From a virus (Duplodnaviria; Heunggongvirae; Uroviricota; Caudoviricetes), in IMG/VR virus record IMGVR_UViG_3300033696_000004, positions 36,031 through 100,030 of that record: 64,000 bases of DNA. One strand, written 5' to 3'. Under the pieces are notes generated by a model. The model was given only the letters and a program-made list of their open reading frames with translations. It was not told where the DNA came from and made no database searches. Every line of letters starts with the position of its first letter. Position 1 is the stretch's first letter. Made by a program: the position numbers and the translations under genes. Positions 11,059 to 32,582 of this stretch are shown piece by piece.

Positions 11059-11065
11059 AATTCAT

Positions 11066-11139: not shown

Positions 11140-11161
11140 ATTCACTTAACGGACAAACACT

Positions 11162-12054: not shown

Positions 12055-12112
12055 CTATCTCGTTGGGTTCATATCCCAAAGGTCACTGGTGCAATTCCAG
12101 TACTCGCTACCA
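12037..12112 (+). tRNA. tRNA-Met (CAU) with initiator-like features
   Basis: Acceptor tgcgagt/actcgct with a 1:72 T-T mismatch, D arm gaga..tctc, anticodon stem ttggg/cccaa (three consecutive G-C pairs) with loop ttCATat, T arm actgg-tgcaatt-ccagt, CCA encoded. Confidence 0.6.
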
Positions 12113-12118
12113 AATTAT

Positions 12119-12191
12119 AGGGGGTTAGTTCAGTTGGTAGAACGTTGGATTCCAAATCCAAATGCCGAGGGTTCAAGTCCTTCATCCCCTG
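12119..12191 (+). tRNA. tRNA-Trp (CCA)
   Basis: Acceptor agggggt/atcccct, D arm gttc..gaac, anticodon stem ttgga/tccaa with loop ttCCAaa, T arm gaggg-ttcaagt-ccttc. No encoded CCA. Confidence 0.65.
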
Positions 12192-12197
12192 CATTCC

Positions 12198-13995: not shown

Positions 13996-14634
13996 ATGTT
14001 TGTAAAATCTATTACCAGAAATGAATGTGAACCATTTATTCTAGGTATTCATTATGCTAAACGTTGGTGTTCTATTAGTTACGCATTTGGATTATATCAA
14101 CCTATAGAGAATGACTTTATGGGAAGAGATGAATTAATTGGTATCGTAACCTATGGTACTCCACCAAGTTCTACATTAAAATCTGGTATTGCTGGCGATG
14201 AACATAAAGAAAAGGTTCTAGAACTTAACAGGTTATGTTTGAAATACAATCGCAAGAATGAAGCTAGTTTCTTGGTTGGAAATAGCCTTAAACTATTACC
14301 TAAGAATCGAATTGTAGTAAGCTTTGCTGACATAGAGCAAGGTCACAATGGTTGTGTATATCGTGCAACTAACTTTACTTACCATGGTTTATCTGCGAAA
14401 CGTAAAGACTGGAAGGTAAAGGGTCTAGAACACTTACATGGTATTACTATTGCGGATCAGTTTCGTGGCGTAGAGAACCGTGGTAAGGCTATTCGTGAAC
14501 ATTATGGTGATGACTTCTACATGCAAGAACGTCCACGTAAACATCGTTACATCTTTGTTACTGGTGATAAGCGTCAGAAGAAGATTTTAAAATCCGCTAT
14601 CAAATATCCAATAGAAAAATTTATCAAAGAATAG
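13996..14634 (+). CDS. putative Mom-like DNA-modification protein (acyltransferase fold), tentative
   Basis: 212 aa. Motif pattern GIHYAKRW...LIGIVTYGTP...ELNRLCL...VVSFADIEQGHNGCVYRATNFTYHG matches my memory of the phage Mu Mom family signature (HHY..., SYAD..GH.G.IY.A.N). This is recalled from memory, not a database hit. Confidence 0.4.
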   Translation: MFVKSITRNECEPFILGIHYAKRWCSISYAFGLYQPIENDFMGRDELIGIVTYGTPPSSTLKSGIAGDEHKEKVLELNRLCLKYNRKNEASFLVGNSLKLLPKNRIVVSFADIEQGHNGCVYRATNFTYHGLSAKRKDWKVKGLEHLHGITIADQFRGVENRGKAIREHYGDDFYMQERPRKHRYIFVTGDKRQKKILKSAIKYPIEKFIKE

Positions 14635-16121: not shown

Positions 16122-16127
16122 TTTTTA

Positions 16128-16156
16128 AAAAGGCTACCTTCGGGTAGCCTTTTTTG
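16128..16156 (+). terminator. rho-independent terminator
   Basis: aggctaccttcgggtagcct plus T run. The identical hairpin is reused at 17082-17108. Confidence 0.65.
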
Positions 16157-18903: not shown

Positions 18904-20589
18904 ATGTTTGAACAAATTTCTCAAGAACGTAAACAACTACAACTTACTGGTGAAGTTCCTATGTGGTATACCACACAGGGATACCTTATGTTCAAACGCA
19001 AATACGCATACCAAGGCGAAACTGTTCGTGGAGCGTTCCATCGCATTGCATCTCACTTATCACCACTTGACGGACATCCAGAAGCTTATCAACGTTTCTT
19101 TGATCTGTTGTGGTCTGGTAAGTTAGCACCAAGTACACCCGTTATGTGTAACGTAGGTACTGATCGTGGTATGTCGGTTTCGTGTGCTGGTAACTATGTA
19201 GGCGATTCGGTTGAAGCTTTCTATGATAGTCTATCTGAAGTTGCTATACTATCGAAGAATGGATTTGGTACTGCATCATACTTGGGTGATATTCGTCCTC
19301 GTGGTTCTCTAATCAAATCTACTGGAGAAACTGCTGCTGGTGTAGTTCCTGTTATCGATACTTACATCGATACCAAATCAAAGATTTCCCAAGGCGGTCG
19401 TCGTGGCGAATGGGCTGCTTATGTCAATGTCAACAGTGACGACTTCGATGAAATCATCGGTTATCTTCTAAAGAATCCTGCTGATACTAACATTGGTTGG
19501 GTTTACGAGAAAGAAGATTACGAAGCATTGAAGGCTGGTGACCCAGAAGCATTACGTCGCTGGAATGAAGTCTTGTATGTTCGTGCTCGTGTTGGTAAAG
19601 GTTACATGTGGAAGAACTGGATTGCTAACGAACTAGCTCCACAAGCGATCAAGAATAGCGGAATTAAGATTCGTTCTTCTCAATTATGTACAGAAATTGC
19701 ATTACCATCTGATGAATTTCATACATTCACTTGCATTTTAAGTTCATATAACTTATCATTATGGGATGAAATGACTGACGGAGACCTAAAGTGGGGTGTT
19801 CGTTTCTTGGATGCTATTTGTACCGATTTCTTAAATCAGGCTCGTGGCAAAAAGCACATGGAAAAAGCTGTACGCTTTACAGAAAAAGCACGTGCTCTAG
19901 GTTTGGGTACATTAGGTTTCCATTCTTACTTACAGGACAACATGATCCCGTTTGAGTCTGGTGAAGCCCATATGGTCAATAATCAAATCTACAAGCGTAT
20001 TTGGGATGTTACATTAGAAGCATCTAAAGAACTAGGTGCAGAAAAAGGTATCCCTGAATGGTGCGAAGGTACTGGTCAGCGTAACGCAACATTACTTACA
20101 ATTGCACCTAACATGAGTTCTGCTCTGTTGTGTGGTTCTAAGTCTCAGGGTGTAGAACCTATTGTATGTAACGCATACGAACAACAAACTAATGCTGGTA
20201 ACATGGTTCGTACTAACCCTGCTTTTGTTAAGCTTGCGAAAGAGAAGGGAATGTACTCAGAAGAATTGATGTCGGACTTGGCTATCAACTTCAATGGGTC
20301 AGTTCAACATTTGGGTTGGTTAACCGACCACGAGAAAGCAGTATTCAAGACTGGCTGTGAAATTAACCAAATGGCTGTTATTCGTTTAGCGTCTGCTCGT
20401 CAACGTCGTATCGACCAAGCGCAATCAATCAATCTTCAGTTCGCTGGAGACGAAAAAGAAGAAGTAATCGCTGCTGTGCATAAAGCGTTCATGGACGATC
20501 CACGCATGAAATCACTTTATTACTTACGTTCTGAGCGTGGTGTAAAAGCTTCTACTGGTGAGTCAACATGCGTTGCGTGTGAAGGGTAA
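18904..20589 (+). CDS. nrdA: ribonucleotide reductase large subunit (class I, NrdA-like, no ATP cone)
   Basis: 561 aa. Catalytic-core motifs (PVMCNVG, GFGTASYLGDIRPRGS, GGRRGEWAAYVNV) and a C-terminal CVAC redox pair. Confidence 0.8.
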   Translation: MFEQISQERKQLQLTGEVPMWYTTQGYLMFKRKYAYQGETVRGAFHRIASHLSPLDGHPEAYQRFFDLLWSGKLAPSTPVMCNVGTDRGMSVSCAGNYVGDSVEAFYDSLSEVAILSKNGFGTASYLGDIRPRGSLIKSTGETAAGVVPVIDTYIDTKSKISQGGRRGEWAAYVNVNSDDFDEIIGYLLKNPADTNIGWVYEKEDYEALKAGDPEALRRWNEVLYVRARVGKGYMWKNWIANELAPQAIKNSGIKIRSSQLCTEIALPSDEFHTFTCILSSYNLSLWDEMTDGDLKWGVRFLDAICTDFLNQARGKKHMEKAVRFTEKARALGLGTLGFHSYLQDNMIPFESGEAHMVNNQIYKRIWDVTLEASKELGAEKGIPEWCEGTGQRNATLLTIAPNMSSALLCGSKSQGVEPIVCNAYEQQTNAGNMVRTNPAFVKLAKEKGMYSEELMSDLAINFNGSVQHLGWLTDHEKAVFKTGCEINQMAVIRLASARQRRIDQAQSINLQFAGDEKEEVIAAVHKAFMDDPRMKSLYYLRSERGVKASTGESTCVACEG

Positions 20590-20642
20590 ATAATCAACTA
20601 AAGGGGCGAATAGCCCCTTATACTAACAATTAGGAAATCAAA

Positions 20643-20882
20643 ATGTCAAAACCACAAATTCTATTATTCGGTGCAGACTGGTGTCAAACATGTAAACTTA
20701 TGAAACCTATGCTTCAGCGTATTGGTGACGTTACTTACATCGACGTTGATGAAGACGTAGACACTACTGCGAAGTATGCAGTTCGTTCTCTTCCTACATA
20801 CATCAACTTAGAAACTGACGACCGTGGTACAGGTCCAGCTAAGAACATCGCAGAACTTAAAGAAGTTCTAGGTATTGAATAA
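20643..20882 (+). CDS. thioredoxin
   Basis: 79 aa. WCQTC active site (CxxC) and thioredoxin-fold layout. Adjacent to nrdA. Confidence 0.75.
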   Translation: MSKPQILLFGADWCQTCKLMKPMLQRIGDVTYIDVDEDVDTTAKYAVRSLPTYINLETDDRGTGPAKNIAELKEVLGIE

Positions 20883-20885
20883 CAA

Positions 20886-20909
20886 AGAGACCTTCGGGTC
20901 TCTTTTTTC
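20886..20909 (+). terminator. rho-independent terminator
   Basis: gagaccttcgggtctc hairpin plus T run. Confidence 0.65.
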
Positions 20910-20919
20910 GTTTTATAGG

Positions 20920-20948
20920 TTGACAACAAATTATAATCGTCTATACTT
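20920..20948 (+). promoter_or_regulatory. early promoter (TTGACA, 17 bp, TATACT) with conserved 5'UTR module
   Basis: ttgaca 20920-20925 and tatact 20943-20948. The segment ctatacttctcacatcaac is repeated verbatim at 29383-29401. Confidence 0.45.
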
Positions 20949-20987
20949 CTCACATCAACCAAACAGAGGAAATAAAAAGGAGTTGGA

Positions 20988-21233
20988 ATGATAAACTGGT
21001 CTAAGAGTAAGGGAATTAAAGTCACCATTGAATATGGGGAATATTTGGTGGATGGTAAGTTTCAATTAATTTACATGGTTTGTGTTGGGAATAATGTAAT
21101 AGAAGGTATTGCAAGATTCAAAATCAAACCAACGAAAAAGGAGTTGCGTAAACTAAAACAATCGTGGTATACTTTTGTCAAATGTTATGATTATGTCACA
21201 CCACCTAAATTCAACGGTAAAATTTTTAAATAG
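20988..21233 (+). CDS. hypothetical protein
   Basis: 81 aa ORF with RBS ggagttggaATG. Confidence 0.45.
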   Translation: MINWSKSKGIKVTIEYGEYLVDGKFQLIYMVCVGNNVIEGIARFKIKPTKKELRKLKQSWYTFVKCYDYVTPPKFNGKIFK

Positions 21234-21242
21234 GAAATAAAA

Positions 21243-22193
21243 ATGGGTTCATTCAATACATCATGCGCAGTTACAAATACACCAATTATTGAAGGTCAAG
21301 ACGTTCGTTTGTTCTTCCTTATTGCTGCTGGAAACTATAAAGGTTTGTTCGCTGGTTGTTCATGCTACTCGTATGACAACTATCAAATCCTAGGTCTGCC
21401 AGTTAAAGCAAAATACGATGACTATGGTCGTTATGCAATCGATGATGAACTAGAAGAATATACGCTAAACGAAATACGCAAGCGTTATGTGATGAATAAA
21501 GTAGCCGAAGGTAAAACAATCAAAGACTACAGTCATCATCATGACCACATGGAAATCGAAGCAGAAGACCTAGATTCTATGAAGATTCAAGACATGATTC
21601 ACAGTGGTCGTCTGAATGTTAGTACATACAACCGCGAGCCTGTTCATGTTCAATTCATGGCTGTACACGAAGAAGTGTTCCAGTACATGGTATCTGGTGA
21701 CATGCAAACGGGTTGGGGCGATGAACGTAAGACCATTAACGTTGAATCCAAGACGAACGAATTCCGTGAGTTGTATAACTGCGACCCGATGGATACTGAT
21801 TCATACCGTTCTGTCATGCGCTTATTGAAGACCCAACGTGATGAAGGTAAGCTGTCATCAGAAGAGTTTGAAGTTGCTATTAATAACTTAATGGATAAGC
21901 GTGATCTGTTCCGTTCTTTGGGTAGTGATAAAATTCGTAGTGAACACATCTACCAATTCAGCTCTGACGCACTGTTTAAGGTCGAATCTGAAACTAAGTT
22001 CAAGACTCTTGCTGAACTTTACTTTTTCGACGTACGTATGCAGCAACATAACTTAATGTACCAATCAACTATGTTGTCTGGTCAATGCTACGACTTTAAG
22101 TCCGAAGCAAAACGTTTCCGTGCATTAGCTGACATTATGGATAACCTCCATGCTGCTCGTGGTTGGGATGACGAAGACGAAGACGAAGAATAA
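21243..22193 (+). CDS. hypothetical protein
   Basis: 316 aa acidic protein. No motif recognised. Confidence 0.5.
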   Translation: MGSFNTSCAVTNTPIIEGQDVRLFFLIAAGNYKGLFAGCSCYSYDNYQILGLPVKAKYDDYGRYAIDDELEEYTLNEIRKRYVMNKVAEGKTIKDYSHHHDHMEIEAEDLDSMKIQDMIHSGRLNVSTYNREPVHVQFMAVHEEVFQYMVSGDMQTGWGDERKTINVESKTNEFRELYNCDPMDTDSYRSVMRLLKTQRDEGKLSSEEFEVAINNLMDKRDLFRSLGSDKIRSEHIYQFSSDALFKVESETKFKTLAELYFFDVRMQQHNLMYQSTMLSGQCYDFKSEAKRFRALADIMDNLHAARGWDDEDEDEE

Positions 22194-22250
22194 AAATAAT
22201 AGTTGACACGTTAAATTATTCTGATACTATCTACTGCATCAACTAAACGG

Positions 22251-22598
22251 ATGAAAATTATGAAACATTTCAACAATAAATCATTATTACCAGAAGTTAT
22301 CCTAGCTCTACCTAAAGAAGAATATAATGATGGTCTATCTACTGGAGACTCTTTTACTACGGATGAAGTAAAGGTTCGTATGGGTAAAACCAATTTTGGA
22401 ATCTACATGATTTCTGTATGCGCTACCAATGAAATGACTGGTGAGTTTTACAAGCCTAGTCATTTAGTCATTGCGACATTCGGTTATAAATCAAATGGGA
22501 TGATATCTTTCCATGGGAAGTTAAGTAGTCGTCGTACAATTCGTAAGCGTATCAATCAGTTAAAGAAACTGACTAAATTTAAGTTTACAACCAAATAA
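22251..22598 (+). CDS. hypothetical protein
   Basis: 115 aa ORF downstream of a TTGACA promoter. Confidence 0.45.
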   Translation: MKIMKHFNNKSLLPEVILALPKEEYNDGLSTGDSFTTDEVKVRMGKTNFGIYMISVCATNEMTGEFYKPSHLVIATFGYKSNGMISFHGKLSSRRTIRKRINQLKKLTKFKFTTK

Positions 22599-22616
22599 AC
22601 TTATAGTATTATAAAC

Positions 22617-22931
22617 ATGTTCTCAATTAAGGAATGGAATATGAATATTTTAGAAGATAAGCAACTTAAAAACCTATCAACTGAACGTCTTGTTGCATTA
22701 AAGAAGCAACTAAACAAAACTGTAGGTCGTCGTCGTCATGATGTCGAAAGTACAACAATCGAAACAACTCCTGAAGATTTTAAAATCTATCATGATTATG
22801 TAGATTTCGCTGTACGTGTTAAAGACATCTTATCGGATCGTGAAAATATCGACAACATCGGTCGTGGTCATAAACACAATCATGATAAGCGTGATCGTCG
22901 TCAAGGTGCGGATCGTAAACGTAATTATTAA
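22617..22931 (+). CDS. hypothetical protein
   Basis: 104 aa, basic C-terminus. Confidence 0.45.
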   Translation: MFSIKEWNMNILEDKQLKNLSTERLVALKKQLNKTVGRRRHDVESTTIETTPEDFKIYHDYVDFAVRVKDILSDRENIDNIGRGHKHNHDKRDRRQGADRKRNY

Positions 22932-22971
22932 TATTTGATGGGGAGTTCGCTCCCCAATTAAAGGTAATTCT

Positions 22972-23556
22972 ATGTTAACTAAAATTTTAAATTGGTTAGG
23001 CTTGAATAAGCCAGTCAAATCCAATAACATTGGTCTTAACTTTGATGGTACTATCCCATCGATTAAGTCCGAATTGGATAAGCTAGAAGCTAAAGACGAG
23101 AAGCTTAACGAAGCAAATCGTAATGAACGCGAAGCTGCAAGACGTAAAGACTTAGAAAACGACTTTATTCTTGGTGAAGTTAAGGAATGCATGACTACAC
23201 GTGAAAAACGTTTAGCTGAAATCAAGAAGAAATTCGAAGATGCTGCTAAAGAAAAGGAAGAAGAACGTAATTCTGGTACTTACCGTTATGTTCCACCTAA
23301 AGACCCACGCAAGCGTTTACGTTCTAAGTATAAAACTGATGGTAGTCGTAATATTAAACCAGTTTCTAAGCCTGATGCTAAATGTCGCTCAGAAGCTCGT
23401 CGTACAGCACGTACAAACAATGATGACTCTTACTACGATGATACTGCAACACGCAGTGCATCAAGTTACACGAGCCATAGTAGCCATGATTACAGTAGTT
23501 CATGTGATTCTGATTCGAGTTCAAGCTCATGTGGTTCATCTGGTAGTTGTGATTAA
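22972..23556 (+). CDS. hypothetical protein with Ser/Cys/Asp-rich C-terminus
   Basis: 194 aa. Coiled-coil-like N-terminus and a low-complexity SSCDSDSSSSSCGSSGSCD tail. Confidence 0.45.
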   Translation: MLTKILNWLGLNKPVKSNNIGLNFDGTIPSIKSELDKLEAKDEKLNEANRNEREAARRKDLENDFILGEVKECMTTREKRLAEIKKKFEDAAKEKEEERNSGTYRYVPPKDPRKRLRSKYKTDGSRNIKPVSKPDAKCRSEARRTARTNNDDSYYDDTATRSASSYTSHSSHDYSSSCDSDSSSSSCGSSGSCD

Positions 23557-23644
23557 AATAAATTAAAATAATAGTTTACAAACGGTCAAACGTTTGATAC
23601 TATAGGTTCATCGAGTTGAGGGAGACTTCTTCTTGATGAACAAT

Positions 23645-23766
23645 GTGGGGTTAGCTCAGTCTGGTAGAGCAAAAGAATGTTAAGTAAAGTCTGTCAAGAC
23701 TTTCTCCAGCAAACTTTAACTAAGTAAATCTTTCGGTCGGTGGTTCAAATCCATCACCCCACACCA
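23645..23766 (+). tRNA. tRNA-like gene A with 45-nt insertion 3' of an intact GUU (Asn-type) anticodon loop
   Basis: Perfect acceptor gtggggt/accccac, D arm gctc-agtctggta-gagc, anticodon stem aaaga/tcttt and T arm ggtgg-ttcaaat-ccatc with CCA encoded. Between the stem halves lie the loop atGTTaa and then 45 extra nt containing the hairpin agtct-gtca-agact followed by ttcTCCAGC. The insert is flanked by the direct repeat taagtaaa. Confidence 0.55.
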
Positions 23767-23770
23767 AAAT

Positions 23771-23890
23771 GGACGGTTAGCTCAATTGGGAGAGCACTTT
23801 ACGATAGTTATCCTGTTAAGGATACATTCAGCGTATTAATCATGCCTATTAAGCAAGTGGTTGCTGGTTCGAATCCAGCACCGTCCACCA
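23771..23890 (+). tRNA. tRNA-like gene B with ~50-nt anticodon-arm insertion
   Basis: Acceptor ggacggt/accgtcc, D arm gctc-aattggga-gagc and T arm gctgg-ttcgaat-ccagc with CCA encoded. The interior holds the hairpin ttatcc-tgttaa-ggata followed by caTTCAGC. Anticodon not assignable. Confidence 0.5.
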
Positions 23891-23914
23891 TTCTAAAATT
23901 TAGAATACTTTTGT

Positions 23915-24037
23915 CGAGGTGTAGCTCAGTGGCAGAGCACGTATAGAGGTTAATCTGACAAGATTACGTTCAGCACCCCATTCAAATTGCATATGGAGCA
24001 CGGTTGCGTTTGGTTCGATTCCAGACCACCTCGACCA
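23915..24037 (+). tRNA. tRNA-like gene C with ~46-nt anticodon-arm insertion
   Basis: Acceptor cgaggtg/cacctcg (perfect), D arm gctc-agtggca-gagc and T arm (g)tttgg-ttcgatt-ccaga(c) with CCA encoded. The interior holds the hairpin taatct-gaca-agatta followed by cgTTCAGC. Confidence 0.5.
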
Positions 24038-24050
24038 AAAGTATTTTAGC

Positions 24051-24173
24051 ATAGAAGTAGTTCAGTTGGTTAGAACACCGACCTTATAAAGAACGCAATC
24101 TGATAAGATTTGTATTCAGCAATTATTTCTAACGTCCCGTCGGGGGTCACAGGTTCGAGTCCTGTCTTCTATG
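24051..24173 (+). tRNA. tRNA-like gene D with 49-nt insertion 3' of an intact UAU anticodon loop
   Basis: Acceptor atagaag/cttctat, D arm gttc-agttggtta-gaac, anticodon stem ccgac/gtcgg, loop ctTATaa intact, then a 49-nt insert with the hairpin aatct-gataa-gatt followed by gtaTTCAGC, and T arm acagg-ttcgagt-cctgt. Confidence 0.55.
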
Positions 24174-24198
24174 CAAAATACTTAATAAAATAATTCGG

Positions 24199-24316
24199 AG
24201 AGAGTTGGGGTAATTGGAAGCCCACGTAGGAGTTATCCCGAAAAGGATACGTTCAGCATTCTACCACATCACTCATATAGATCGTGACACAGGTTCGATT
24301 CCTGTACTCTCTACCA
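24199..24316 (+). tRNA. tRNA-like gene E with ~45-nt anticodon-arm insertion
   Basis: Acceptor agagagt/actctct, D arm gggt-aattggaa-gccc and T arm acagg-ttcgatt-cctgt with CCA encoded. The interior holds the hairpin ttatcc-cgaaaa-ggata followed by cgTTCAGC, near-identical to the hairpin of gene B. Confidence 0.5.
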
Positions 24317-24360
24317 AATTATTTTAATTATTATTATTATTACACAGTGAAGGAAACATC

Positions 24361-24648
24361 ATGGAAATCATTACAAAGTCAATCACTAGTCCAAAAAAGA
24401 TTCGTGTTACTGTTTCTCCATCCGATAATCAAATTCGGTTGAAGACTAACCCAACCAATCCAAATAAAGATTTGGCATTGAAAGTTTGTCGTATGATGCA
24501 GCCTGATTTTGAAAAGTTAGAAAAGAGTATGCGTGGAGACATGTATTTCGCTGAACATGTAGTTCAAATTACACTGTATAATGATTCTAGATCTGAAAAA
24601 TCAGTTCATCGCTTCTCAAATGAAGCTGTTGCACTTTGTTTATTATAA
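24361..24648 (+). CDS. hypothetical protein
   Basis: 95 aa ORF with RBS gaaggaaacatcATG. Confidence 0.45.
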   Translation: MEIITKSITSPKKIRVTVSPSDNQIRLKTNPTNPNKDLALKVCRMMQPDFEKLEKSMRGDMYFAEHVVQITLYNDSRSEKSVHRFSNEAVALCLL

Positions 24649-24672
24649 TCAACCTGAAAGAAGGAAAGTAAA

Positions 24673-25170
24673 ATGGAAACACTTTTAGCATCAATTGGCG
24701 CAGTAGTTCTAACTTGGGGTTTCATCGTTGCAGTGTTTATTCTTGCTATAGTTTCTGACTATAACGAGTCACAAAAAGATGAATTCGGTTGGGCTGCTAC
24801 TTGGACTATTCTAGGTGCGATTTGTTTATACTTACTGATTGACCCTAGTCCTTGGGTTGCTGGTATTATTGCTGTATGTTGGGTTCCAGTTGGTCTTATC
24901 TGGGCTACAATTAAGTGGAAACTTCGTATTAGTAAAACAAAATACGAAATTGAAACTAAGAAATTGGAAAAGGGTTATCCTGCATACGAGATTTTGCGTA
25001 GTAAATTGGATATCGATGAAGTTAAGTCAACAGTTGCATACTGGACTTTATTCTTCCCAGTTAGTTTCGTGTCAACATGTTTTGTAAATGTGTTTGATTC
25101 TATTAAGTACTTAGTTACCGTGAAGATGGGTAAATTCTTCCGTAACATGGCAGAAGAAGCGTTTAAATAA
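24673..25170 (+). CDS. membrane protein
   Basis: 165 aa with 3-4 predicted transmembrane helices (VVLTWGFIVAVFILAIV, ILGAICLYLLI, VAGIIAVCWVPVGLIWATI). Confidence 0.5.
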   Translation: METLLASIGAVVLTWGFIVAVFILAIVSDYNESQKDEFGWAATWTILGAICLYLLIDPSPWVAGIIAVCWVPVGLIWATIKWKLRISKTKYEIETKKLEKGYPAYEILRSKLDIDEVKSTVAYWTLFFPVSFVSTCFVNVFDSIKYLVTVKMGKFFRNMAEEAFK

Positions 25171-25231
25171 TGGTTAAAATTCATAAAGGTCAACTATTCC
25201 GTTAAGTAAATTTAATTAACGGAGAAATCAA

Positions 25232-25699
25232 ATGTCAAGAACATATCGTCGCACTACTGGTGACCAAACAACAACTAGCATTGGTCAAAGTGAACTAAAT
25301 CCATACTACGGTCGTTCTCCTTGGAAGTATACTTCCATAAGGGTTCAAGAAGAACGTACTAGTTGGAAGTATGTTCCTCGGAATGAGGAATGGGCTGGTT
25401 ATCACGTTATTGTTAAAGAAATGGTATGGGTTAATAAGTTCACTGGCTATACGTGGGAAGATAACCCTTTAGATCGCTGCGAACTACTTGAAAATCAAGT
25501 TGATGCAATCAACTGGAAACGCAAGTGGAACCAAGATCGTCGGTTGGATTATTCTCATAAGACACTGAAAGAACACTCTAAATCATTACGTCGTAACGAT
25601 AACAAGCGTGAACTATCACGTATTGCGAAACTAAATAAATTCGAAGAAATGGATTATGTGGATTCAAAGAGGAATTCAGAACGTTGGTTCTTCGATTAA
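25232..25699 (+). CDS. hypothetical protein
   Basis: 155 aa basic, W-rich protein. Confidence 0.45.
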   Translation: MSRTYRRTTGDQTTTSIGQSELNPYYGRSPWKYTSIRVQEERTSWKYVPRNEEWAGYHVIVKEMVWVNKFTGYTWEDNPLDRCELLENQVDAINWKRKWNQDRRLDYSHKTLKEHSKSLRRNDNKRELSRIAKLNKFEEMDYVDSKRNSERWFFD

Positions 25700-25817
25700 G
25701 AATAGATGGTTATGTAAGGATGCAGATACTAATTGCAGCTACTCCGAACAGTTTCAATAAATCTATTCACACTCACCAAAAGGAGCCTAGTGCTCCTTTT
25801 CTTTTAGGTAAAATAAA

Positions 25818-26384
25818 ATGGCTAAACTATACTTCTATCACAGCGTAATGAACGCTGGCAAATCTACTCACTTACTTCAAGTAAACCACAACTATAAAGA
25901 ACGTGGTATGAAGACCGTCCTAATTACTTCTGGTATTGATGACCGTTATGGTGTTGGTAAGATTGCATCACGTATTGGTTTGTCTGCTGAAGCATTGTCA
26001 TTCCATGCAGATACAAACATGTTCGATTTGATTCCGTCTGGTGTTAGCTGTGTTATAGTTGATGAATGTCAATTCCTTACACGTAAGCAAGTAGAACAGC
26101 TTGCAGACTACGTAGATGAAGCTGGTGTACCAGTTATGTGCTACGGTCTACGTGTAGATTTCAAGCAAGGTCTATTCGAAGGTTCGGCTGCTTTATTTGC
26201 GTTAGCTGATAAGTGCGTAGAGATGAAAACCATCTGTCATTGTGGTAGTAAGGCTACTCAGATTGCTAAGGTTGATGAATCTGGACGTATGGTTGATTTC
26301 AACTCACCTCAAGTTGAAATTGGTGGAAATGACCGTTACATCAGCATGTGTCGTCGTCACTACAATGAATTAAAAGATTTTTAA
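25818..26384 (+). CDS. tk: thymidine kinase
   Basis: 188 aa. P-loop MNAGKST, a zinc-ribbon CHCG...C..H at the C-terminus, and overall TK1-type layout as in T4 Tk. Confidence 0.85.
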   Translation: MAKLYFYHSVMNAGKSTHLLQVNHNYKERGMKTVLITSGIDDRYGVGKIASRIGLSAEALSFHADTNMFDLIPSGVSCVIVDECQFLTRKQVEQLADYVDEAGVPVMCYGLRVDFKQGLFEGSAALFALADKCVEMKTICHCGSKATQIAKVDESGRMVDFNSPQVEIGGNDRYISMCRRHYNELKDF

Positions 26385-26448
26385 ATAAGTAGTTGACACC
26401 AACAATAGTTATGCTATTATAACCCCATCGAAACAAAGAGGAAACATT

Positions 26449-26769
26449 ATGAAAATTGAAACATCTAGTACATTTGATACTGAAAAAGTATGTCGTGTAC
26501 GTATAGAAATCTTCAATTCCCATCATAATTTTTATGATGAAGAACTGATTTACAAGAATTCTGCTTCTAAAGATGCTATCTACAATTTATGTGCAGGATT
26601 TACATCACGTATTAATGAACTACGTGGATTAAAATTTGATTTACAGACCAAGGTGACTGTTATATCATTACCACATGGTCAACAAGTATTAACTACTGAA
26701 GACGATAGTGAACTTATTAGTTTAAAGACACTATTTGTTATGTACGCAAATCAAATGATTCACGCTTAA
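26449..26769 (+). CDS. hypothetical protein
   Basis: 106 aa ORF after a TTGACA/TATTAT promoter. Confidence 0.45.
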   Translation: MKIETSSTFDTEKVCRVRIEIFNSHHNFYDEELIYKNSASKDAIYNLCAGFTSRINELRGLKFDLQTKVTVISLPHGQQVLTTEDDSELISLKTLFVMYANQMIHA

Positions 26770-26835
26770 TAAGTGTTGACAAAGTTGGGGGTTATGATAA
26801 CATAGCCCTATCTTAAACGACTTGGGAGTCAAGTT

Positions 26836-27948
26836 ATGAAAATCAATGAAATGAACAATCGCCAAATTAAAGAATCTGGTCTACACACTAAAGCCGTAGT
26901 AATCGGTCGGTTTGAACCAGTAATGCACCGTGGTCATGTATCCATGATCCATAAAGCTTTAGACGTAGCAAAAGAAGTGTTTATCGTAATCGGATCTGCT
27001 AGTGCTTATCCTGATGTGAAAAACCCAATTTCTGTTGATTTGCGTCAACGTTGTATCTGGAACATCTTGCGTGATGAATTCACGGTGGAACAATGTTCTC
27101 GTATCAAAACTCGTTATGTTAATGACTACAAATACAATGACGAGAAGTGGAAAACTGAAATTCGTATGCAAGTCGGTGAACGTCGTTGGGATAACATCGC
27201 AATGATTGGATTCGAGAAAGACCAAGATTCATACTGGTTAAATGAGTTTGGTTGGACAATGATTCCAGTTGAGCCTACTATGGTAAGCTGGTTGGGTTCG
27301 AGTGTTCCAATGAGTTCTACGTTTATCCGTGATCATTGGCTACGTACTGGTGAAATCTTACTTAAAGAAATGCTACCTCAAGCATGTGTTGATTTCCTAG
27401 AGAAGTTCACGTGGATTAATGGTAAATTCAGTAAAGAGTTCGACCGTCTAAACGAAGAACGTTTGAAGTGGGACAAAGAAATCAAGAAGTTTGATGATTA
27501 CCCATACATGGAATCACTACATGGTGTATGTGCTGACTCTGTAGTATTATGCAATAATCATGTTTTGTTAATCGAACGCAAGTTTGCACCAGGAAAAGGT
27601 GCATGGGCTTTACCAGGCGGTCACAAGAATAGTGATGAAACATTCCGTTATGCTGCATTGCGTGAACTGGAAGAAGAAGTTGGTCTGAAGGTATCGCCTA
27701 AAGTAATTCGTGGTTCTATCAAAGATTCTCAATTGTTTGATGACCCTAAGCGTACTGCTGTATTCTGTAAACCTACAGTTGCTCAGTTTATTGTATTGCA
27801 ACCCGACCACGATGGTAAATTACCACGTGTTCAGGGTGCTGATGATGCTAAACGTGCATTCTGGGTTCCACTTCATGAAATTAAAGAAAACCCACAGAAG
27901 CTATTTGATGACCATTCATGCATCATTAGTTACTTCACTGGTGTTTGA
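26836..27948 (+). CDS. natV: bifunctional NMN adenylyltransferase / Nudix ADP-ribose pyrophosphatase (NatV/NadM-Nudix type)
   Basis: 370 aa. N-terminal nucleotidyltransferase motif GRFEPVMHRGH (HxGH-like) and C-terminal Nudix box GGHKNSDETFRYAALRELEEEVGL. Confidence 0.75.
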   Translation: MKINEMNNRQIKESGLHTKAVVIGRFEPVMHRGHVSMIHKALDVAKEVFIVIGSASAYPDVKNPISVDLRQRCIWNILRDEFTVEQCSRIKTRYVNDYKYNDEKWKTEIRMQVGERRWDNIAMIGFEKDQDSYWLNEFGWTMIPVEPTMVSWLGSSVPMSSTFIRDHWLRTGEILLKEMLPQACVDFLEKFTWINGKFSKEFDRLNEERLKWDKEIKKFDDYPYMESLHGVCADSVVLCNNHVLLIERKFAPGKGAWALPGGHKNSDETFRYAALRELEEEVGLKVSPKVIRGSIKDSQLFDDPKRTAVFCKPTVAQFIVLQPDHDGKLPRVQGADDAKRAFWVPLHEIKENPQKLFDDHSCIISYFTGV

Positions 27949-27951
27949 TAA

Positions 27952-27977
27952 AAGGAGACCTTCGGGTCTCCTTTTTT
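27952..27977 (+). terminator. rho-independent terminator
   Basis: ggagaccttcgggtctcc hairpin plus T run. Confidence 0.65.
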
Positions 27978-28091
27978 GATCTAAATCACGCAAATAAATG
28001 TTGATTTCAATAGTTTGCGTGGTATAATGTTTACGTTGAGTTAACCAAATAGGAGTTTTTATGTTCAACACTCAATTTAAAAGGAAATATC

Positions 28092-29300
28092 ATGCTACAA
28101 TCTATTATAGGAATCTTATTCCTCCTAGCGTTAGGATATGCGTTCTCTGAGAATCGTAATGCGATTAGCTGGAGGGCTGTAATCGGTTCATTTGCAATAC
28201 TAATGAGTATTTCCGCATTTGTACTGGGAACCGATTTCGGTGCTGATGTTCTATTAGCAGCATCGAAAGGTGTTGGTTCTGTTTTTTCCTACGGAACTGA
28301 AGGTATTAAGTTTGTATTCGGTAACCTAGTTACATTCCAAGTTGAAGGACTTGGATTCATATGGGCTTTCCAAGTACTTCCAATGATTATATTCACCGCA
28401 TCGCTCACATCATTATTATACTACTATGGTATTATGCAATGGTTCGTTCGTATTATCGGTGGCGGTCTTCAGAAACTGTTAGGTACATCCCGTGCGGAAT
28501 CAATGAGTGCAGCTGGTAACATTGTACTAGGTCAAACTGAAGCACCACTTCTAGTTCGTCCTTATCATCCAATATTAACTCGTGCTCAAATATTTGCAAT
28601 CATGGTCGGTGGTCTTGCTTCAATTGCTGGTTCTATCCTAGCTGGTCTAGCTGGAATGGGTGTTGAACTCAAGTACCTGATTATGGCGTGTTTCATGTCG
28701 GCTCCAGCTGGTTTATTGTTCGCTAAATTAATCATCCCCGAAACTGAAACGACTATCGACGAAGTTCCCGAAGAACCCGAAGAAGATAAAGCAACAAGTT
28801 TCATTGATGCAATCGCAAAGGGTGCAATGACTGGTCTAGCAATCGCTGGTATCGTTGGTGCAGTTATCATTGCATGTATCGGTATCATGGCTTTGCTTAA
28901 CGGTATACTTGGTTATGTCGGTGGATTTGTTGGTTACGCAAGTCTGTCGGTTGACACAATCCTTGGATTCGTCTTCGCTCCTATCGCATGGATGATCGGT
29001 GTTCCTTGGTCAGAAGCAATGCAAGCTGGTTCTCTGATTGGTCAAAAGATCGCAATGAATGAGTTCGTAGCTTACGCAAGCTTCGGCACAATGGAATTGT
29101 CTGCTAAGACATCTGGTATCATCACAATTGCACTATGTGGATTCGCTAACATTAGTTCGGTTGCAATGGTTGTAGGTGCTATGAGTAAGATGATACCAAC
29201 AAAAGCTGGTATCATCGCATCTCTTGGTATGAAAGTACTATTAGCTGCTACTATGGCTAACCTAATGGCTGCTACAGTCGTAGGTCTGTTCATATCATAA
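28092..29300 (+). CDS. concentrative nucleoside transporter (NupC/CNT family)
   Basis: 402 aa polytopic membrane protein. Recognisable NupC signatures: GTEGIKFVFGN, FQVLPMIIF, and SESMSAAGNIVLGQTEAPLLVRPY matching the conserved SxAxxGN(I/V)FLGQTEAPLL(I/V)RPY motif. Confidence 0.75.
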   Translation: MLQSIIGILFLLALGYAFSENRNAISWRAVIGSFAILMSISAFVLGTDFGADVLLAASKGVGSVFSYGTEGIKFVFGNLVTFQVEGLGFIWAFQVLPMIIFTASLTSLLYYYGIMQWFVRIIGGGLQKLLGTSRAESMSAAGNIVLGQTEAPLLVRPYHPILTRAQIFAIMVGGLASIAGSILAGLAGMGVELKYLIMACFMSAPAGLLFAKLIIPETETTIDEVPEEPEEDKATSFIDAIAKGAMTGLAIAGIVGAVIIACIGIMALLNGILGYVGGFVGYASLSVDTILGFVFAPIAWMIGVPWSEAMQAGSLIGQKIAMNEFVAYASFGTMELSAKTSGIITIALCGFANISSVAMVVGAMSKMIPTKAGIIASLGMKVLLAATMANLMAATVVGLFIS

Positions 29301-29305
29301 TAGAA

Positions 29306-29329
29306 GGGAGCCTTTCGGCTCCCTTTTTA
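29306..29329 (+). terminator. rho-independent terminator
   Basis: gggagcctttcggctccc hairpin plus T run. Confidence 0.65.
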
Positions 29330-29415
29330 TTTGTCTAAAATAATTTAAAATTATGTTGACAGTATTCAGGTAATCCCCTATACTTCTCACATCAACTAAG
29401 AAGAAGGAAATAAAC

Positions 29416-29973
29416 ATGAAATACAAATTCGTACATAATAACTCGCTAACTAAGATTGAGAAAACTAAAGTCTACTTTGGTGAAAACTCTAAAAACTTGG
29501 TTTCATTCGGAAGTACATATACTAAAGATCAAGAAGTTAAATGTCTGTCATGTAATAAAGACACTCTTGTTCTACAAACTCCATCCAAATCGGTGTTATT
29601 ACAAAACTGTATTGTCATTGTTGATCTTACTAAACGTAATGTTGGTGTTGCTGATGATCATTCTTTCCACAATGCGGTAGCGGTTACACGAAATGGTAAC
29701 CAACCGTTGCAGATTTACGGTATTGTAATTGACGACACTGGTTGTCCATACACAATGGGTGATCGTGAAGTACGTGAAGTTAATCCAGTTAAACGTGGTG
29801 ATAAGTTAGTGAATAACCGTGGTCGTGAAATCACCGTTACATATGTTGCAGATGATGGTTCATTTGCTTATGAGTATTTGCGCAATTCACATAAAGTCGA
29901 ATTTGCATCTGCATACATGTCTATCAACGATCATGGTTCTGCTTCTTACGGTATCAAAAAAGAACTATTATAG
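29416..29973 (+). CDS. hypothetical protein
   Basis: 185 aa ORF downstream of a TTGACA promoter. No motif recognised. Confidence 0.45.
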   Translation: MKYKFVHNNSLTKIEKTKVYFGENSKNLVSFGSTYTKDQEVKCLSCNKDTLVLQTPSKSVLLQNCIVIVDLTKRNVGVADDHSFHNAVAVTRNGNQPLQIYGIVIDDTGCPYTMGDREVREVNPVKRGDKLVNNRGREITVTYVADDGSFAYEYLRNSHKVEFASAYMSINDHGSASYGIKKELL

Positions 29974-30353
29974 TGGATAAATTTACTGGAGAAGAGGTGT
30001 TCGAACACATTATCAATCTGAGTGCTATGTTGCAAGACGCAAAAAATGGAAAGTTCGATAGTAAACGTGAAATTTTAAAAGAATTTCGTGAAATCAAATC
30101 GAATGTGCTTGCAGCAGAGAAACTTTGTATTGATTCTCATATCGAACAAATGAATTGTATATGTTCCAAATTCAATAAGCCAGTGTGGACACTTCGTCGT
30201 AACCTTGTAGAATATTATTATCATTTCGAAAAGACTTGTAATAACTGTGGAAAGGTTCATACTACAACATTAAAGAAATGGAACAATCACACGGATCCTT
30301 CCCCAGAAGGATTCGAAGGTGCAACTAAAGCTTTCTATAACTTGGACATTTAA
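29973..30353 (+). CDS. hypothetical protein
   Basis: 126 aa. Possible zinc ribbon C..C...CNNC near the C-terminus. Start overlaps the upstream stop. Confidence 0.45.
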   Translation: MDKFTGEEVFEHIINLSAMLQDAKNGKFDSKREILKEFREIKSNVLAAEKLCIDSHIEQMNCICSKFNKPVWTLRRNLVEYYYHFEKTCNNCGKVHTTTLKKWNNHTDPSPEGFEGATKAFYNLDI

Positions 30354-30361: not shown

Positions 30362-31402
30362 ATGAAAACAATTATGACAACAATCTTCGGTTCACATCTA
30401 TACGGTTTGAACACTGAAAATAGCGATATGGATTACAAGTCAATCTTTATTCCTGAAACAAAATACTTGGTTCTACAAACAGCAATACGTAACATCAGTC
30501 ATTCTACTGGTGGTCAAGATGCTAAGAACACAGCAGAAGATGTAGATACGGAACTTTTCGCACTACATGAATGGATTAAACTGGCTCTACAAGGTGAGAC
30601 TGTAGCACTTGACATGCTTCATACTACACCTGAAATGTTGCTTGAAACTTCTCCTACGTGGGAGTTCATTCAAGAAAACCGTTGGCGTTTCTACACCACT
30701 GACATGCGTTCATACGTGGGTTACGTGAAGAAACAAGCTGCTAAGTACGGTGTCAAAGGTACACGTCTAGATGCTCTACAGAAGAGTATCGATGAAGCTA
30801 ATGAAGCACTGTGCTTAGCTAATACGTATGATGGAGAAATTGATGTTAATACCATCAAACTAGGTGATGTTATTGACTACCTACCAGAAGATCATTACCG
30901 TAGTAAAGTTACCGACACCAAAGGTGAACATGAGTACCACTTCTACAAGGTATTAGAAAAGAAGTTTCAGACTACGCTGCGTGTAACTGAATACATCTCT
31001 ATCTTGCAAGGTATCTACAACTCTTACGGTTCTCGTGCTAAAGAAGCACAAGAGAACAAAGGTATCGACTGGAAAGCATTGTCACATGCTATCCGTGGTG
31101 GTTACCAGTTGAAAGAGATCTACACTACTGGTGACTTGAAGTACCCGTTAAAACAGCGTGAGTTCCTTCTAGCGGTTAAGCGTGGTGAACTTGATTTCAT
31201 CACGCAAGTTAAACCAGAACTTGAAAAAATTGTTGACGAAGTAGAGAAACTTGCTATAGAATTGGAAACATCTGGTAAGCTTCCACGTAAACCTGATCGT
31301 AAATTCTGGGATGACTTCGTATACAAAGTATACGGTGGAGAAATCTATCACGATTATGACCGTTACTTGGAAGAAGAAGACAATAACGAAAGTCATATGT
31401 AA
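30362..31402 (+). CDS. Pol-beta superfamily nucleotidyltransferase (function unknown)
   Basis: 346 aa. N-terminal GSHLYGLNTENSDMDY fits the GS-x9-13-DxD minimal NTase motif. The C-terminal ~200 aa are helical. Confidence 0.55.
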   Translation: MKTIMTTIFGSHLYGLNTENSDMDYKSIFIPETKYLVLQTAIRNISHSTGGQDAKNTAEDVDTELFALHEWIKLALQGETVALDMLHTTPEMLLETSPTWEFIQENRWRFYTTDMRSYVGYVKKQAAKYGVKGTRLDALQKSIDEANEALCLANTYDGEIDVNTIKLGDVIDYLPEDHYRSKVTDTKGEHEYHFYKVLEKKFQTTLRVTEYISILQGIYNSYGSRAKEAQENKGIDWKALSHAIRGGYQLKEIYTTGDLKYPLKQREFLLAVKRGELDFITQVKPELEKIVDEVEKLAIELETSGKLPRKPDRKFWDDFVYKVYGGEIYHDYDRYLEEEDNNESHM

Positions 31403-31463: not shown

Positions 31464-32582
31464 ATGAAACAATTTACTAAACAACAGAGAACTAAACAGT
31501 TCGAAGGTAATAAAATGAACGCATTTACACAACGTAATAATCCAATCAAAACTCCAATCAAAACTCAAATTAATGGTGCAAAAATGAAAAAATTAGCAAT
31601 CGGTGTAGGCATTACTCTAGCAACTATCGCAGTTGGTTCTCAATTCTTCCTAACGGTACAGAAAGGTCACGTTGGCGTAGAAAGTAAGATGGGTGGTATG
31701 ATTGTGCTTGATAAGCATTATTCAGAAGGTCTACACTTCCCAGTTAACCCATTATCATCTTTCGTTGAAATCTCAGTCAAAGATGAATCTATACCGCTTA
31801 AAGGTATTGAAATTGACCGTGTTGGTAATGCATACTCTAATGGTAGCTATGTACTACAAACTGCTGACCAAATGACAACTGGAGTTGATGTAGAAATCTT
31901 GCTTCAACTTAAACCTAAGTTCGCACCATACTTCGTTCAACAAGTTGGCACATTCGATGGTGCGGTTGGTACATACATTACTCCAGCATTGCTTGAGTCA
32001 TTGATGAAACAAGGTTCATCTGTTGAATCTGCACAAGATTTGTTTAGTACTACAGCTAAACACAATCTAAAAACTGGAACAATGAAAGACATGGTTTCGT
32101 ACTTACAGAATCCAGAAATTATGGGTAAGTTATCTAATGGTTTCACTATTAAAGACGTTAAGTACCAACGTATGGTTCTTCCACCTCGTATCCAAGAGAT
32201 GATCAACCAAGCTAAAGAGCGTGAAGAGGCTGAAGACATTGCGGTATCCAACGAAACAATCCGCAAGACTGACGCAGATGCTAAGTTGTACGAAGAACAA
32301 AAACATGCTCTTGCAACCGAAGCACAAGCCGATGCTGAAGCTCACCGTCGTACAGTTAACGCAACTGCTGTAGAAAAAGAAGCTGATGCTAAGTTATACG
32401 CAATGCAAAAAGAATCTGCTGGTATCAAGAACTTAAATTCTTCAATTAATCCTCAATACATCCAGTACATGAACGCACAAGCAGCTGTAACAGCTGCACA
32501 GAACTACAAAGGCGGAGTACCACAATCGGTCACTACGCTTGGTGATGCTAACAACTTCATACCATTTATGAACATGAAGTAA
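31464..32582 (+). CDS. SPFH/band-7 (HflK/C-stomatin-like) domain protein
   Basis: 372 aa (true start may be an internal ATG). An N-terminal transmembrane segment, then LTVQKGHVGV...the SPFH core, and a long A/E/K-rich coiled-coil tail. Confidence 0.55.
   Translation: MKQFTKQQRTKQFEGNKMNAFTQRNNPIKTPIKTQINGAKMKKLAIGVGITLATIAVGSQFFLTVQKGHVGVESKMGGMIVLDKHYSEGLHFPVNPLSSFVEISVKDESIPLKGIEIDRVGNAYSNGSYVLQTADQMTTGVDVEILLQLKPKFAPYFVQQVGTFDGAVGTYITPALLESLMKQGSSVESAQDLFSTTAKHNLKTGTMKDMVSYLQNPEIMGKLSNGFTIKDVKYQRMVLPPRIQEMINQAKEREEAEDIAVSNETIRKTDADAKLYEEQKHALATEAQADAEAHRRTVNATAVEKEADAKLYAMQKESAGIKNLNSSINPQYIQYMNAQAAVTAAQNYKGGVPQSVTTLGDANNFIPFMNMK

Follow-up and report, generated by a model that had tools for sequence, protein, structure and literature searches.

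This report concerns five tandem tRNA-like genes (elements A to E) on the plus strand of a 64,000-nucleotide (nt) stretch of viral DNA, positions 36,031 to 100,030 of the IMG/VR virus record IMGVR_UViG_3300033696_000004. This stretch, here called the window, comes from an uncultured relative of the KVP40-type Vibrio phages. Each of the five genes is interrupted in its anticodon arm by a short insert, and all inserts carry the same hairpin followed by a conserved sequence motif (together, the module). The module is a real, selected RNA structure with a phage-specific distribution. It exists in closed, open and permuted forms and is linked to genes for proteins with a predicted Ro60 fold. With confidence only a little better than even, we regard the five elements as stable, tRNA-embedded analogues of Y RNAs, in which the module would be the binding site of the Ro60-like protein encoded in the window.

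Results

Five tRNA-like genes with interrupted anticodon arms

An earlier note on this DNA had described five back-to-back tRNA-like elements at positions 23645–24316, and direct reading of the sequence agrees with it. The elements are about 115–122 nt long, with inserts of 41–56 nt, and lie behind a promoter-like sequence:

23575–23603, plus strand: sigma-70-like promoter (TTTACA, 17 nt, TG-TACTAT), just 5' of element A
23645–23766, plus strand: element A, tRNA-like, CCA encoded; anticodon stem AAAGA/UCUUU; insert after the loop start
23771–23890, plus strand: element B, tRNA-like, CCA encoded; insert inside the 5' anticodon-stem strand (CUU...GC flanks)
23915–24037, plus strand: element C, tRNA-like, CCA encoded; insert after nucleotide 28 (CG...UGC flanks)
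24051–24173, plus strand: element D, tRNA-like, CCA not encoded; anticodon stem CCGAC/GUCGG; insert after CUUAUAA
24199–24316, plus strand: element E, tRNA-like, CCA encoded; insert after nucleotide 28 (CG...AUC flanks)

Acceptor stem, D arm and T arm are present in cloverleaf order in all five elements, both on direct reading and in minimum-energy folds. The acceptor stems pair at 7 of 7 positions in A, B, D and E, and C also reaches 7 of 7 (CGAGGUG/CACCUCG). The earlier account of complete acceptor stems and a mostly encoded CCA is therefore correct, with the caveats that C has one additional nucleotide separating the T stem from the acceptor strand and that D lacks the CCA. The folding z-score of element A is −3.9. 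The 18 ordinary tRNAs that ARAGORN called all lie outside this region of the window; it called none of the five elements. The Rfam tRNA model, a run of which had been proposed, matched A, B and D (53.3, 49.0 and 57.9 bits, leaving 47, 55 and 50 anticodon-arm bases unaligned, respectively), whereas C and E fell under its threshold.

An uninterrupted anticodon stem of 5 base pairs (bp) with a 7-nt loop (U33, R37) is found in none of the elements, all being broken by the insert. When the insert is removed in silico, the loop has 7 nt in A, B, C and D and 9 nt in E. The loop of A can be read as AUGUUAA (GUU) or, joined otherwise, as AUGUAAA (GUA). The earlier placing of the extra sequence between the two halves of the anticodon stem had to be corrected for B, C and E, in which the insert breaks the 5' strand of the stem after nucleotide 28–29 and is followed on its 3' side by a complete anticodon-type hairpin. 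This hairpin is CUUGC CUAUUAA GCAAG in B, CGUGC AUAUGGA GCACG in C and, with a 9-nt loop, CGAUC ACUCAUAUA GAUCG in E.

Judged by its consensus match alone (9 of 12 positions plus the extended −10 TG), the promoter is likely to be the start of a polycistronic transcript of all five elements. A comparable promoter stands ahead of the two elements of Cronobacter phage S13.

The conserved module

The module consists of an A-rich strand, a covarying stem of 4–7 bp, a hexaloop YGNNAA, a spacer of 7–8 nt and the motif U-N-C-W-G-C-A. About 13 nucleotides are near-invariant and their geometry is fixed. The pair closing the loop is always C-G, and the distance from loop to motif is constant across the family (the motif lies 7 bases past the loop, 8 in D). 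The five modules of the window, with their scores in the covariance model, are as follows:

23686–23711, plus strand: module A, stem AAAGUC/GACUUU, loop UGUCAA, C, UCCAGC-A; 33.7 bits
23809–23833, plus strand: module B, stem UAUCC/GGAUA, loop UGUUAA, CA, UUCAGC-G; 33.1 bits
23951–23975, plus strand: module C, stem UAAUC/GAUUA, loop UGACAA, CG, UUCAGC-A; 41.4 bits
24097–24121, plus strand: module D, stem AAUC/GAUU, loop UGAUAA, UGUA, UUCAGC-A; 36.9 bits
24234–24258, plus strand: module E, stem UAUCC/GGAUA, loop CGAAAA, CG, UUCAGC-A; 35.3 bits

The covariance model was built from 27 family members and has exactly five matches in the window, namely A to E. Among these 27 members the stem covariation is 0.663, compared with 0.161 after shuffling, a value that 0 of 500 shuffles reached, and double changes occur in five of the six stem pairs. 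The pattern CYGNNAAGN6TNCWGC occurs four times in the window (in A, B, C and E) against 0.05 expected, and D differs from it by one extra base. The claim that the shared hairpin and TTCAGC exceed chance is borne out by these figures; the 1–3 nt that had been given as the distance between them is wrong for D, where it is 4 nt. No Rfam family covers the insert. A helix closing the insert (P1) was considered as a universal part of the structure and discarded, since it is seen in the Vibrio-phage group (A to E, K3 and L173) and not family-wide.

Conservation in KVP40-type phages

KVP40 and VH7D each have five matches to the covariance model, all of them one-to-one orthologues of A to E. The hairpin and TTCAGC thus recur in the homologous inserts of related genomes, where the earlier note had proposed to look for them. 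Between the window and KVP40, identity is 80% in the tRNA body, 72% in the module, with compensatory changes in the stem, and 52% in the rest of the insert. In megablast searches element A was the sole stretch of window positions 20000–30000 that aligned to KVP40-type phages, over its full length and with about 84% identity.

The KVP40 orthologues of B, A and D are annotated as tRNA-Pseudo-3, tRNA-Pseudo-4 and tRNA-Pseudo-5, respectively. In the papers on phages phi-pp2, phi-Grn1 and phi-St2 the pseudo-tRNAs appear solely as pseudo-forms of low score (PMC3468402, PMC5107563). KVP40 has another two tRNA-like genes with a module (L029, minus strand, 4988–5024 and 5378–5414), which its GenBank record leaves unannotated; they are the orthologues of E and C, and one has the variant loop AGACAU.

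The anticodon-type hairpins of the orthologues vary. For B, both tRNA-Pseudo-3 and element 1 of L173 have the loop CUGUUAA. The hairpin of C is CGAUC AUAGGGA GAUCG in KVP40, and the orthologues of E in KVP40 and VH7D have 8-nt loops. The loop CUUAUAA of D, which had been called perfect, is indeed present in the window, but its KVP40 counterpart is the non-canonical UCAAAAA.

Distribution of the family

A pattern scan of IMG/VR gave 51 matches at 47 loci, on contigs of 5 to 524 kilobases (kb), nearly all within tRNA-like genes with acceptor, D and T arms. Bacterial and archaeal genomes amounting to 596 Gb gave 41 pattern matches, approximately the chance expectation. None of these 41 combined full acceptor pairing with a real hairpin; their hairpins were mostly of 2 bp or fewer and their spacing was variable. 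The T4 tRNA region, including rnaC and rnaD, has no module, and rnaC and rnaD were rejected as relatives on this ground. No insert-free allele was found in IMG/VR for three scaffold types (the L011 type, the Tyr type and the E type), the sole Tyr-type insert-free pattern match being a chance match in coding DNA. Full-text literature searches yielded no account of the module, nor of mini-introns in phage tRNAs, permuted tRNA-like genes in phages or a function for DUF2828.

Several loci deserve mention. Near-identical module-bearing scaffolds at L011, L018, L024, L028 and L047 differ almost only in the 'anticodon' (UUC, GUC, UCU and GUU). Similar pairs are GUA and GUG in the L007/L049 group and UUC and GUC in the L030/L041 group. 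The contigs of L025 (4578–4660) and L046 (about 4900–5100) have tRNA arrays of at least 30 genes. Among these are variants of the module in which the loop has 11 nt (UGUUAUUUUUA), together with a permuted tRNA-like unit; the loop of its hairpin, AUUCAAA, contains the opal-reading anticodon UCA. Cronobacter phage S13 (L172, 22150–22232) has an orphan 3' half, in which CUACAGCAA and filler precede a T arm, the 3' acceptor strand and ACCA; no 5' half that would match it lies close by.

Open and permuted forms

The module also occurs in an open form, in which its stem is built from the two ends of a small RNA. Such an RNA (here a unit) encloses either an anticodon-type hairpin only or a circularly permuted tRNA-like domain. 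A script identified 11 permuted elements (for example at L025), in which the order is T arm, 3' acceptor strand, a loop of 4–15 nt, 5' acceptor strand and D arm. Their leader is a helix strand followed by N-ACAGCAA, and their trailer is an A-rich run followed by the complementary strand. In the closed form, the counterpart of the bases past the 3' helix strand (UGUGAU, UGUAAA, UGGCAA, UGACAA) is the hexaloop. By their sequence layout, these elements are circular permutations of the window elements, broken in the module loop. Hairpin-only units, which have no tRNA body, are units 1 and 3 of Mycobacterium phage Kingsolomon, the units of Listeria phage LP-064, those of L046 and two in the window. 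The open-form units of the window are:

137–219, plus strand: open-form unit with terminal helix AGGUUAAC/GUUAACCU, UU-ACAGCAA, inner hairpin and A-rich AAAGAAAAU; z-score −2.9
2043–2166, plus strand: permuted open-form unit, in the order helix strand, GU-UCAGCAA, anticodon-type hairpin (loop CUGUGAA), T arm, acceptor stem, D arm, complementary strand and tail UGACAAA
2734–2806, plus strand: open-form unit with helix AGGCUGA/UCAGCCU and CAU-UCAGCAAAAC, enclosing only the hairpin UUUGA AUCUUAA UCAAA; z-score −2.2

The terminal helix of the unit at 137–219 is present in its minimum-energy fold. The unit at 2043–2166, whose acceptor stem is closed by a 6-nt loop, is laid out as the 11 permuted elements are and was called by neither ARAGORN nor Rfam. 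The two hairpin-only units stand free within the canonical tRNA array. Each encloses a hairpin with a 7-nt loop and has a terminal helix of 7–8 bp, flanked on its two sides by N-CAGCAA and by an A-rich run, respectively. A further free-standing open-form unit may lie at 9645–9801.

A Ro60-like protein gene linked to the module

The window also encodes the following protein:

14721–16121, plus strand: Ro60/Rsr-like protein gene (Pfam DUF2828 and DUF7788, von Willebrand factor A-type C-terminus)

The AlphaFold2 model of its product has a predicted local distance difference test score (pLDDT) of 85.6 and a predicted template modelling (TM) score (pTM) of 0.87. In a Foldseek search of the PDB with this model, the seven best matches were all Ro60/Rsr proteins, aligned over the full length (E about 1e-8, TM 0.48–0.60). 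Searches of the PDB at the sequence level gave no match, and the fold search alone succeeded. The product is thus predicted from its modelled fold to be a full-length structural homologue of Ro60/Rsr. Homologues are present in 710 phage isolate records, some of them annotated as 'Ro-like RNA binding protein', and at least 573 stretches of viral contigs have DUF2828/DUF7788. A strong terminator-like hairpin (AAAAAGGCUACCUUCGGGUAGCCUUUUUU, about 16127–16155) lies directly 3' of the gene in the window.

We examined 80 IMG/VR loci with Ro-like genes. The closed-hairpin model matched in four of them only. Open units lay within 800 nt of the Ro60-like gene in 51 of the 80, often 36–54 nt past the stop codon and often in tandem. 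Their density was 0.708 per kb near the gene and 0.129 per kb elsewhere. Named examples are:

Mycobacterium phage Kingsolomon: three units directly downstream of the Ro-like gene, the middle one matching Rfam YrlA
Listeria phage LP-064 (L182): three units directly upstream of the Ro60-like gene
Staphylococcus phage S-CoN_Ph2: one unit, 180 nt downstream of the Ro-like gene
Felix-O1-type coliphage: four units within about 1 kb downstream of the Ro-like gene, among the first tRNAs
Cronobacter phage S13, L051, L173 and an Aeh1-type contig: closed, tRNA-embedded units 0.5–2.7 kb downstream of the Ro-like gene

The middle Kingsolomon unit matches YrlA at E = 1e-5 to 2e-7, over model positions 23–89 only. 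In KVP40-type phages the distance from the Ro60-like gene to the module is about 12 kb. Listeria phage LP-064 also has an RtcB-like 'tRNA-splicing ligase' gene (5322–6473), 1.3 kb downstream of its Ro60-like gene.

Other features of the window

Two further genes of the window are of kinds that occur in RNA-repair contexts:

30362–31402, plus strand: RlaP-family nucleotidyltransferase (RNA-ligase-associated Pol-beta; Pfam PF10127), in RNA-repair gene context
31464–32582, plus strand: Band-7/SPFH protein, adjoining the RlaP gene

A Band7-like gene is found near the Ro-like gene of Kingsolomon too (L181, 204–1136). The 18 canonical tRNAs lie at 556–12192 and serve one amino acid each, Ala and Arg being left without a tRNA; in the tRNA-His (8733–8807) the terminal CCA is replaced by CCC. 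Interleaved with the tRNA arrays, at 3624–5682 and 13996–14634, are genes for radical-SAM, adenylosuccinate-synthetase-like and Mom-family proteins, a set that may serve in DNA or RNA base modification.

Discussion

The preferred interpretation is that the elements are tRNA-shaped partner RNAs of the Ro60-like protein. The five elements would be co-transcribed from the promoter at 23575–23603. Their ends would be cut by RNase P and RNase Z as those of tRNAs are, and the CCA would be encoded or added. Each resulting RNA, which we suppose to be a stable species of about 120 nt, would bear an extra arm jutting from the anticodon arm, equivalent to a closed version of the module that in many phages is formed by the two ends of a small RNA directly beside a Ro60-like gene. 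By analogy with Ro60–Y RNA and Rsr–YrlA, the product of 14721–16121 would bind this module. The tRNA part, chiefly the anticodon-type hairpin that every unit has kept, would be the effector end. To enzymes directed at tRNA, such as those of repair and modification or host anticodon nucleases, it might offer the likeness of a tRNA or an anticodon arm, and speculatively might serve as a mimic, bait or tether for them. Of the three options in the earlier note, that of deliberately elongated tRNA-like RNAs comes closest to the evidence in so far as it concerns an elongated RNA.

The partner-RNA interpretation draws on the covarying structure of the module, its phage-specific distribution, the hairpin-only units, the linkage to the Ro60-like gene, the predicted fold of the protein and the failure to find insert-free alleles of three scaffold types. 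Further observations favour it. Bacterial Ro60 orthologues bind Y RNAs that are encoded adjacent to them and carry a tRNA-like domain, and one bacterial Y RNA is cleaved by RNase P and acquires a CCA (PMC4201824). In a comparison of jumbo phages, ROT/TROVE proteins together with a 'tRNA-like partner' were regarded as a platform for RNA repair, and RlaP was noted as a ligase-associated enzyme (PMC7824862). The eleven permuted units have the YrlA layout of T arm, closed acceptor stem and D arm, with ends paired through the module helix. In addition, several members of the family are unfit for decoding. E-type loops have 8–9 nt, the 'anticodon' of C-type members is AUG or AGG depending on the orthologue, and the D-type loop is non-canonical in KVP40. 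The tRNA set of the window lacks Ala and Arg, and the five elements supply neither.

A number of points weigh against this interpretation. Linkage is the sole tie of the module to the Ro60-like protein. In the window, that gene lies 7.5 kb upstream of the elements and is followed by a terminator hairpin and no unit. Ro-like genes are commonly located at tRNA arrays, so that part of the linkage could reflect neighbourhood and not partnership. The known Ro-contact motifs GGUCCGA and GNCGAAN0-1G are absent from the module, and the alignment of the Rfam YrlA model covers the tRNA-like core but leaves the module out. Furthermore, most members regain, once the insert is deleted, a stem of 5 bp and a loop of 7 nt that has U33 and R37, and the restored loops are typical of their respective anticodons (CUGUCAC for Asp, CUUUCAC for Glu, CUUUUAA for Lys, CUGUAAA for Tyr, and CUGUUAA). 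B-type exons are colinear with uninterrupted phage tRNA-Asn genes, as would be expected of a spliced tRNA.

Among known systems, Ro60–Y RNA, and YrlA in particular, is the closest kind. In both cases the RNA combines a domain like a tRNA with a helix-based module for protein binding (binding being presumed for the phage family) and adjoins a Ro60-fold gene, often in tandem and in settings of RNA repair (RtcB, RlaP, Band-7). The permuted relatives also follow YrlA in their order, in which the T arm comes first, then the closed acceptor stem and last the D arm. However, the phage version is new in protein family, binding module, payload and topology. The phage protein belongs to DUF2828/DUF7788, not TROVE, and is recognisable as Ro60 by fold only. 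The phage module (A-rich, helix, UGNNAA; helix, NCAGCAA) is unlike GNCGAAN0-1G, and the phage units always keep an anticodon-type hairpin. In A to E the topology is reversed: the acceptor end, which bears CCA, is the open one, and a loop within the anticodon arm closes the helix of the module. Working like a Y RNA does not make the elements members of YrlA, since the module has no Ro-contact motif and the YrlA model aligns to the tRNA-like core only. Weak YrlA matches in the window (16–28 bits, against a gathering score of 69) arise via neighbouring T and D arms only and were rejected as artefacts. Chen et al. caution that tRNA dimers can give false YrlA matches. The permuted unit of the Felix-O1-type phage has no Rfam YrlA match.

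The main rival, a minority possibility that we hold tentatively, is that the inserts are true mini-introns, with permuted genes in relatives, and that they are excised and the exons joined into functional tRNAs. The module would then be a handle for a phage endonuclease or scaffold, possibly the Ro60-like protein. A phage RNA ligase would seal the exons after end healing, and permuted units would mature via a circular intermediate. The attraction of this explanation is that at least 12 independent scaffold groups regain canonical anticodon arms once the insert is taken out; joined exons give a canonical tRNA for most family members and for B. A compensatory change is seen across the insert, nucleotides 28:42 being U-A in B and G-C in KVP40. 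The conservation of body and module over filler, as well as the colinearity of B-type exons with tRNA-Asn genes, also speaks for it. RNA-repair genes are near at hand, namely RlaP in the window, RtcB beside the Listeria units and kinase/phosphatase genes at several loci. Protein-spliced tRNA introns of archaea and eukaryotes are likewise short, lie in or near the anticodon arm and occupy several positions, and in the split and permuted tRNA genes of archaea and red algae (Nanoarchaeum, Cyanidioschyzon), as in the phage family, insert-bearing and permuted forms co-exist, with one RNA motif at the break.

However, the same module flanks hairpin-only units, from which splicing cannot give a tRNA, and it therefore cannot be merely an intron. 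The mini-intron option of the earlier note thus accounts for the arms restored in most members and leaves these units unexplained. The distance from module to junction varies (5–14 nt on the 5' side, 5–15 nt on the 3' side). Unlike the archaeal and eukaryal introns, the inserts have no bulge-helix-bulge: the mean best score is 4.75 of 7, compared with 4.52 after shuffling, and 1 of 20 members reaches 7. To our knowledge, no splicing endonuclease is known in the bacterial host. Clustering, Pfam and PHROGs assigned the neighbouring open reading frames to GIY-YIG and HNH homing endonucleases, a kinase, phosphatases and unknowns, with no splicing-endonuclease candidate among them. Exon joining is ambiguous for A and D and does not give a canonical tRNA for E, and E-, C- and D-type members would acquire non-canonical or unstable anticodon loops. 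Closely related scaffolds differ in anticodon (UUC, GUC, UCU, GUU), and the three scaffold types searched in IMG/VR have no insert-free alleles. The joined exons have no close paralogue among the 18 canonical tRNAs of the window. Brute-force splicing with ARAGORN was too permissive and was set aside as uninformative.

Group I introns, which also interrupt bacterial-type tRNA genes in the anticodon arm, are of about 200 nt or more. The inserts have 41–56 nt, lie in the stem and not the loop in most members, and gave no match to the Rfam group I model (Intron_gpI) at E up to 10. They are not group I introns, as the earlier note had concluded from their size.

A related idea, which we consider doubtful, is that the module marks discontinuous phage tRNA genes, either insert-containing (A to E) or permuted (such as 2043–2166), which would be matured by cutting and rejoining on a Ro60-like scaffold and completed by RtcB or Rnl, kinase/phosphatase and RlaP. 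If true, tRNA splicing would have a third kind, distinct from both the group I and the bulge-helix-bulge kinds and the first in bacterial viruses, and Ro60-type proteins would have a defined substrate.

An improbable alternative is that the module is processing punctuation, that is, an endoribonuclease signal separating the units of a polycistronic RNA, and that its linkage to Ro-like genes is an incidental result of a shared tRNA neighbourhood. In the L046 and L025 arrays a hairpin is indeed shared between successive units, and Ro-like genes often head tRNA arrays. However, the helix extensions of Kingsolomon covary within units, not between neighbours. The units of Kingsolomon and of the Staphylococcus phage track the Ro-like gene and not the nearest tRNA, which lies at a distance of over 2 kb. 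Modules A to E of the window are inside the tRNA bodies, which a separating cut would destroy.

It is very improbable that the module is a self-cleaving or self-splicing small ribozyme, with the hairpin and UNCWGCA as a catalytic core that removes the insert or cuts the RNA. Its near-invariant nucleotides, set in a fixed geometry, are comparable in number with those of small ribozymes, and several ribozyme classes are likewise largely phage-restricted. However, no ribozyme or intron family of Rfam (including hammerhead, twister, pistol, hatchet, hairpin and HDV-like) matched positions 23500–24400 at E up to 10. The putative junctions lie at varying distances, and a single small ribozyme would account for one cut and not for two cuts and a ligation. 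The tight linkage to a protein gene points instead to a protein ligand.

The weakest explanation, which we give hardly any credence, is that the elements are pseudogenes, tRNA genes inactivated by a small mobile DNA targeting anticodon arms (an element like a miniature inverted-repeat transposable element (MITE), or a hairpin element of the IS200/IS605 type). The orthologues in KVP40-type genomes are labelled pseudo-tRNAs, and the insert of A is flanked by an 8-nt direct repeat (23681–23688 and 23721–23728). This repeat, which the earlier note had likened to a target-site duplication, exists in the window; it is not kept in the KVP40 orthologue and is therefore not such a duplication. Because the inserts are orthologous position for position in KVP40 and VH7D, with covarying stems and with body and module conserved over filler, and because the repeat is unconserved, MITE-type inactivation, the second option of that note, is rejected. 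The conservation of element A also exceeds that of all surrounding coding DNA, the inserts within one genome have only the module in common and are not near-identical copies, each has a single hairpin where a transposon would be expected to show two ends, and the orthologous sites are occupied in all relatives examined.

Phage RNAs of unassigned function that resemble these elements have been seen before. The KVP40 pseudo-tRNAs are direct orthologues of B, A and D, and no module, family or protein link was described for them or for those of phi-pp2, phi-Grn1 and phi-St2. Species 1 and 2 of T4 (rnaC and rnaD) are small stable RNAs beside phage tRNA genes, and rnaC has a T arm; they differ from the present family in that the module is missing.

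The 'pseudo-tRNAs' of KVP40-type phages, unexplained since 2003, thus become members of a conserved, phage-specific RNA family whose genes are missed or mislabelled by tRNA finders. The DUF2828/DUF7788 proteins gain a predicted fold, that of Ro60, and a candidate RNA ligand. If the preferred interpretation is true, the Ro60–Y RNA paradigm would reach T4-like, Felix-O1-like, Herelleviridae and other major phage groups, and a complete tRNA with a protein-binding module in its anticodon arm would be a new topology. Every unit has an anticodon-type hairpin, with anticodons such as GUN, UUC, UUU, UCU and CAU. Such anticodons count among the targets of known anticodon nucleases, and the family is for this reason a candidate phage counter-measure in the tRNA-cleavage arms race.

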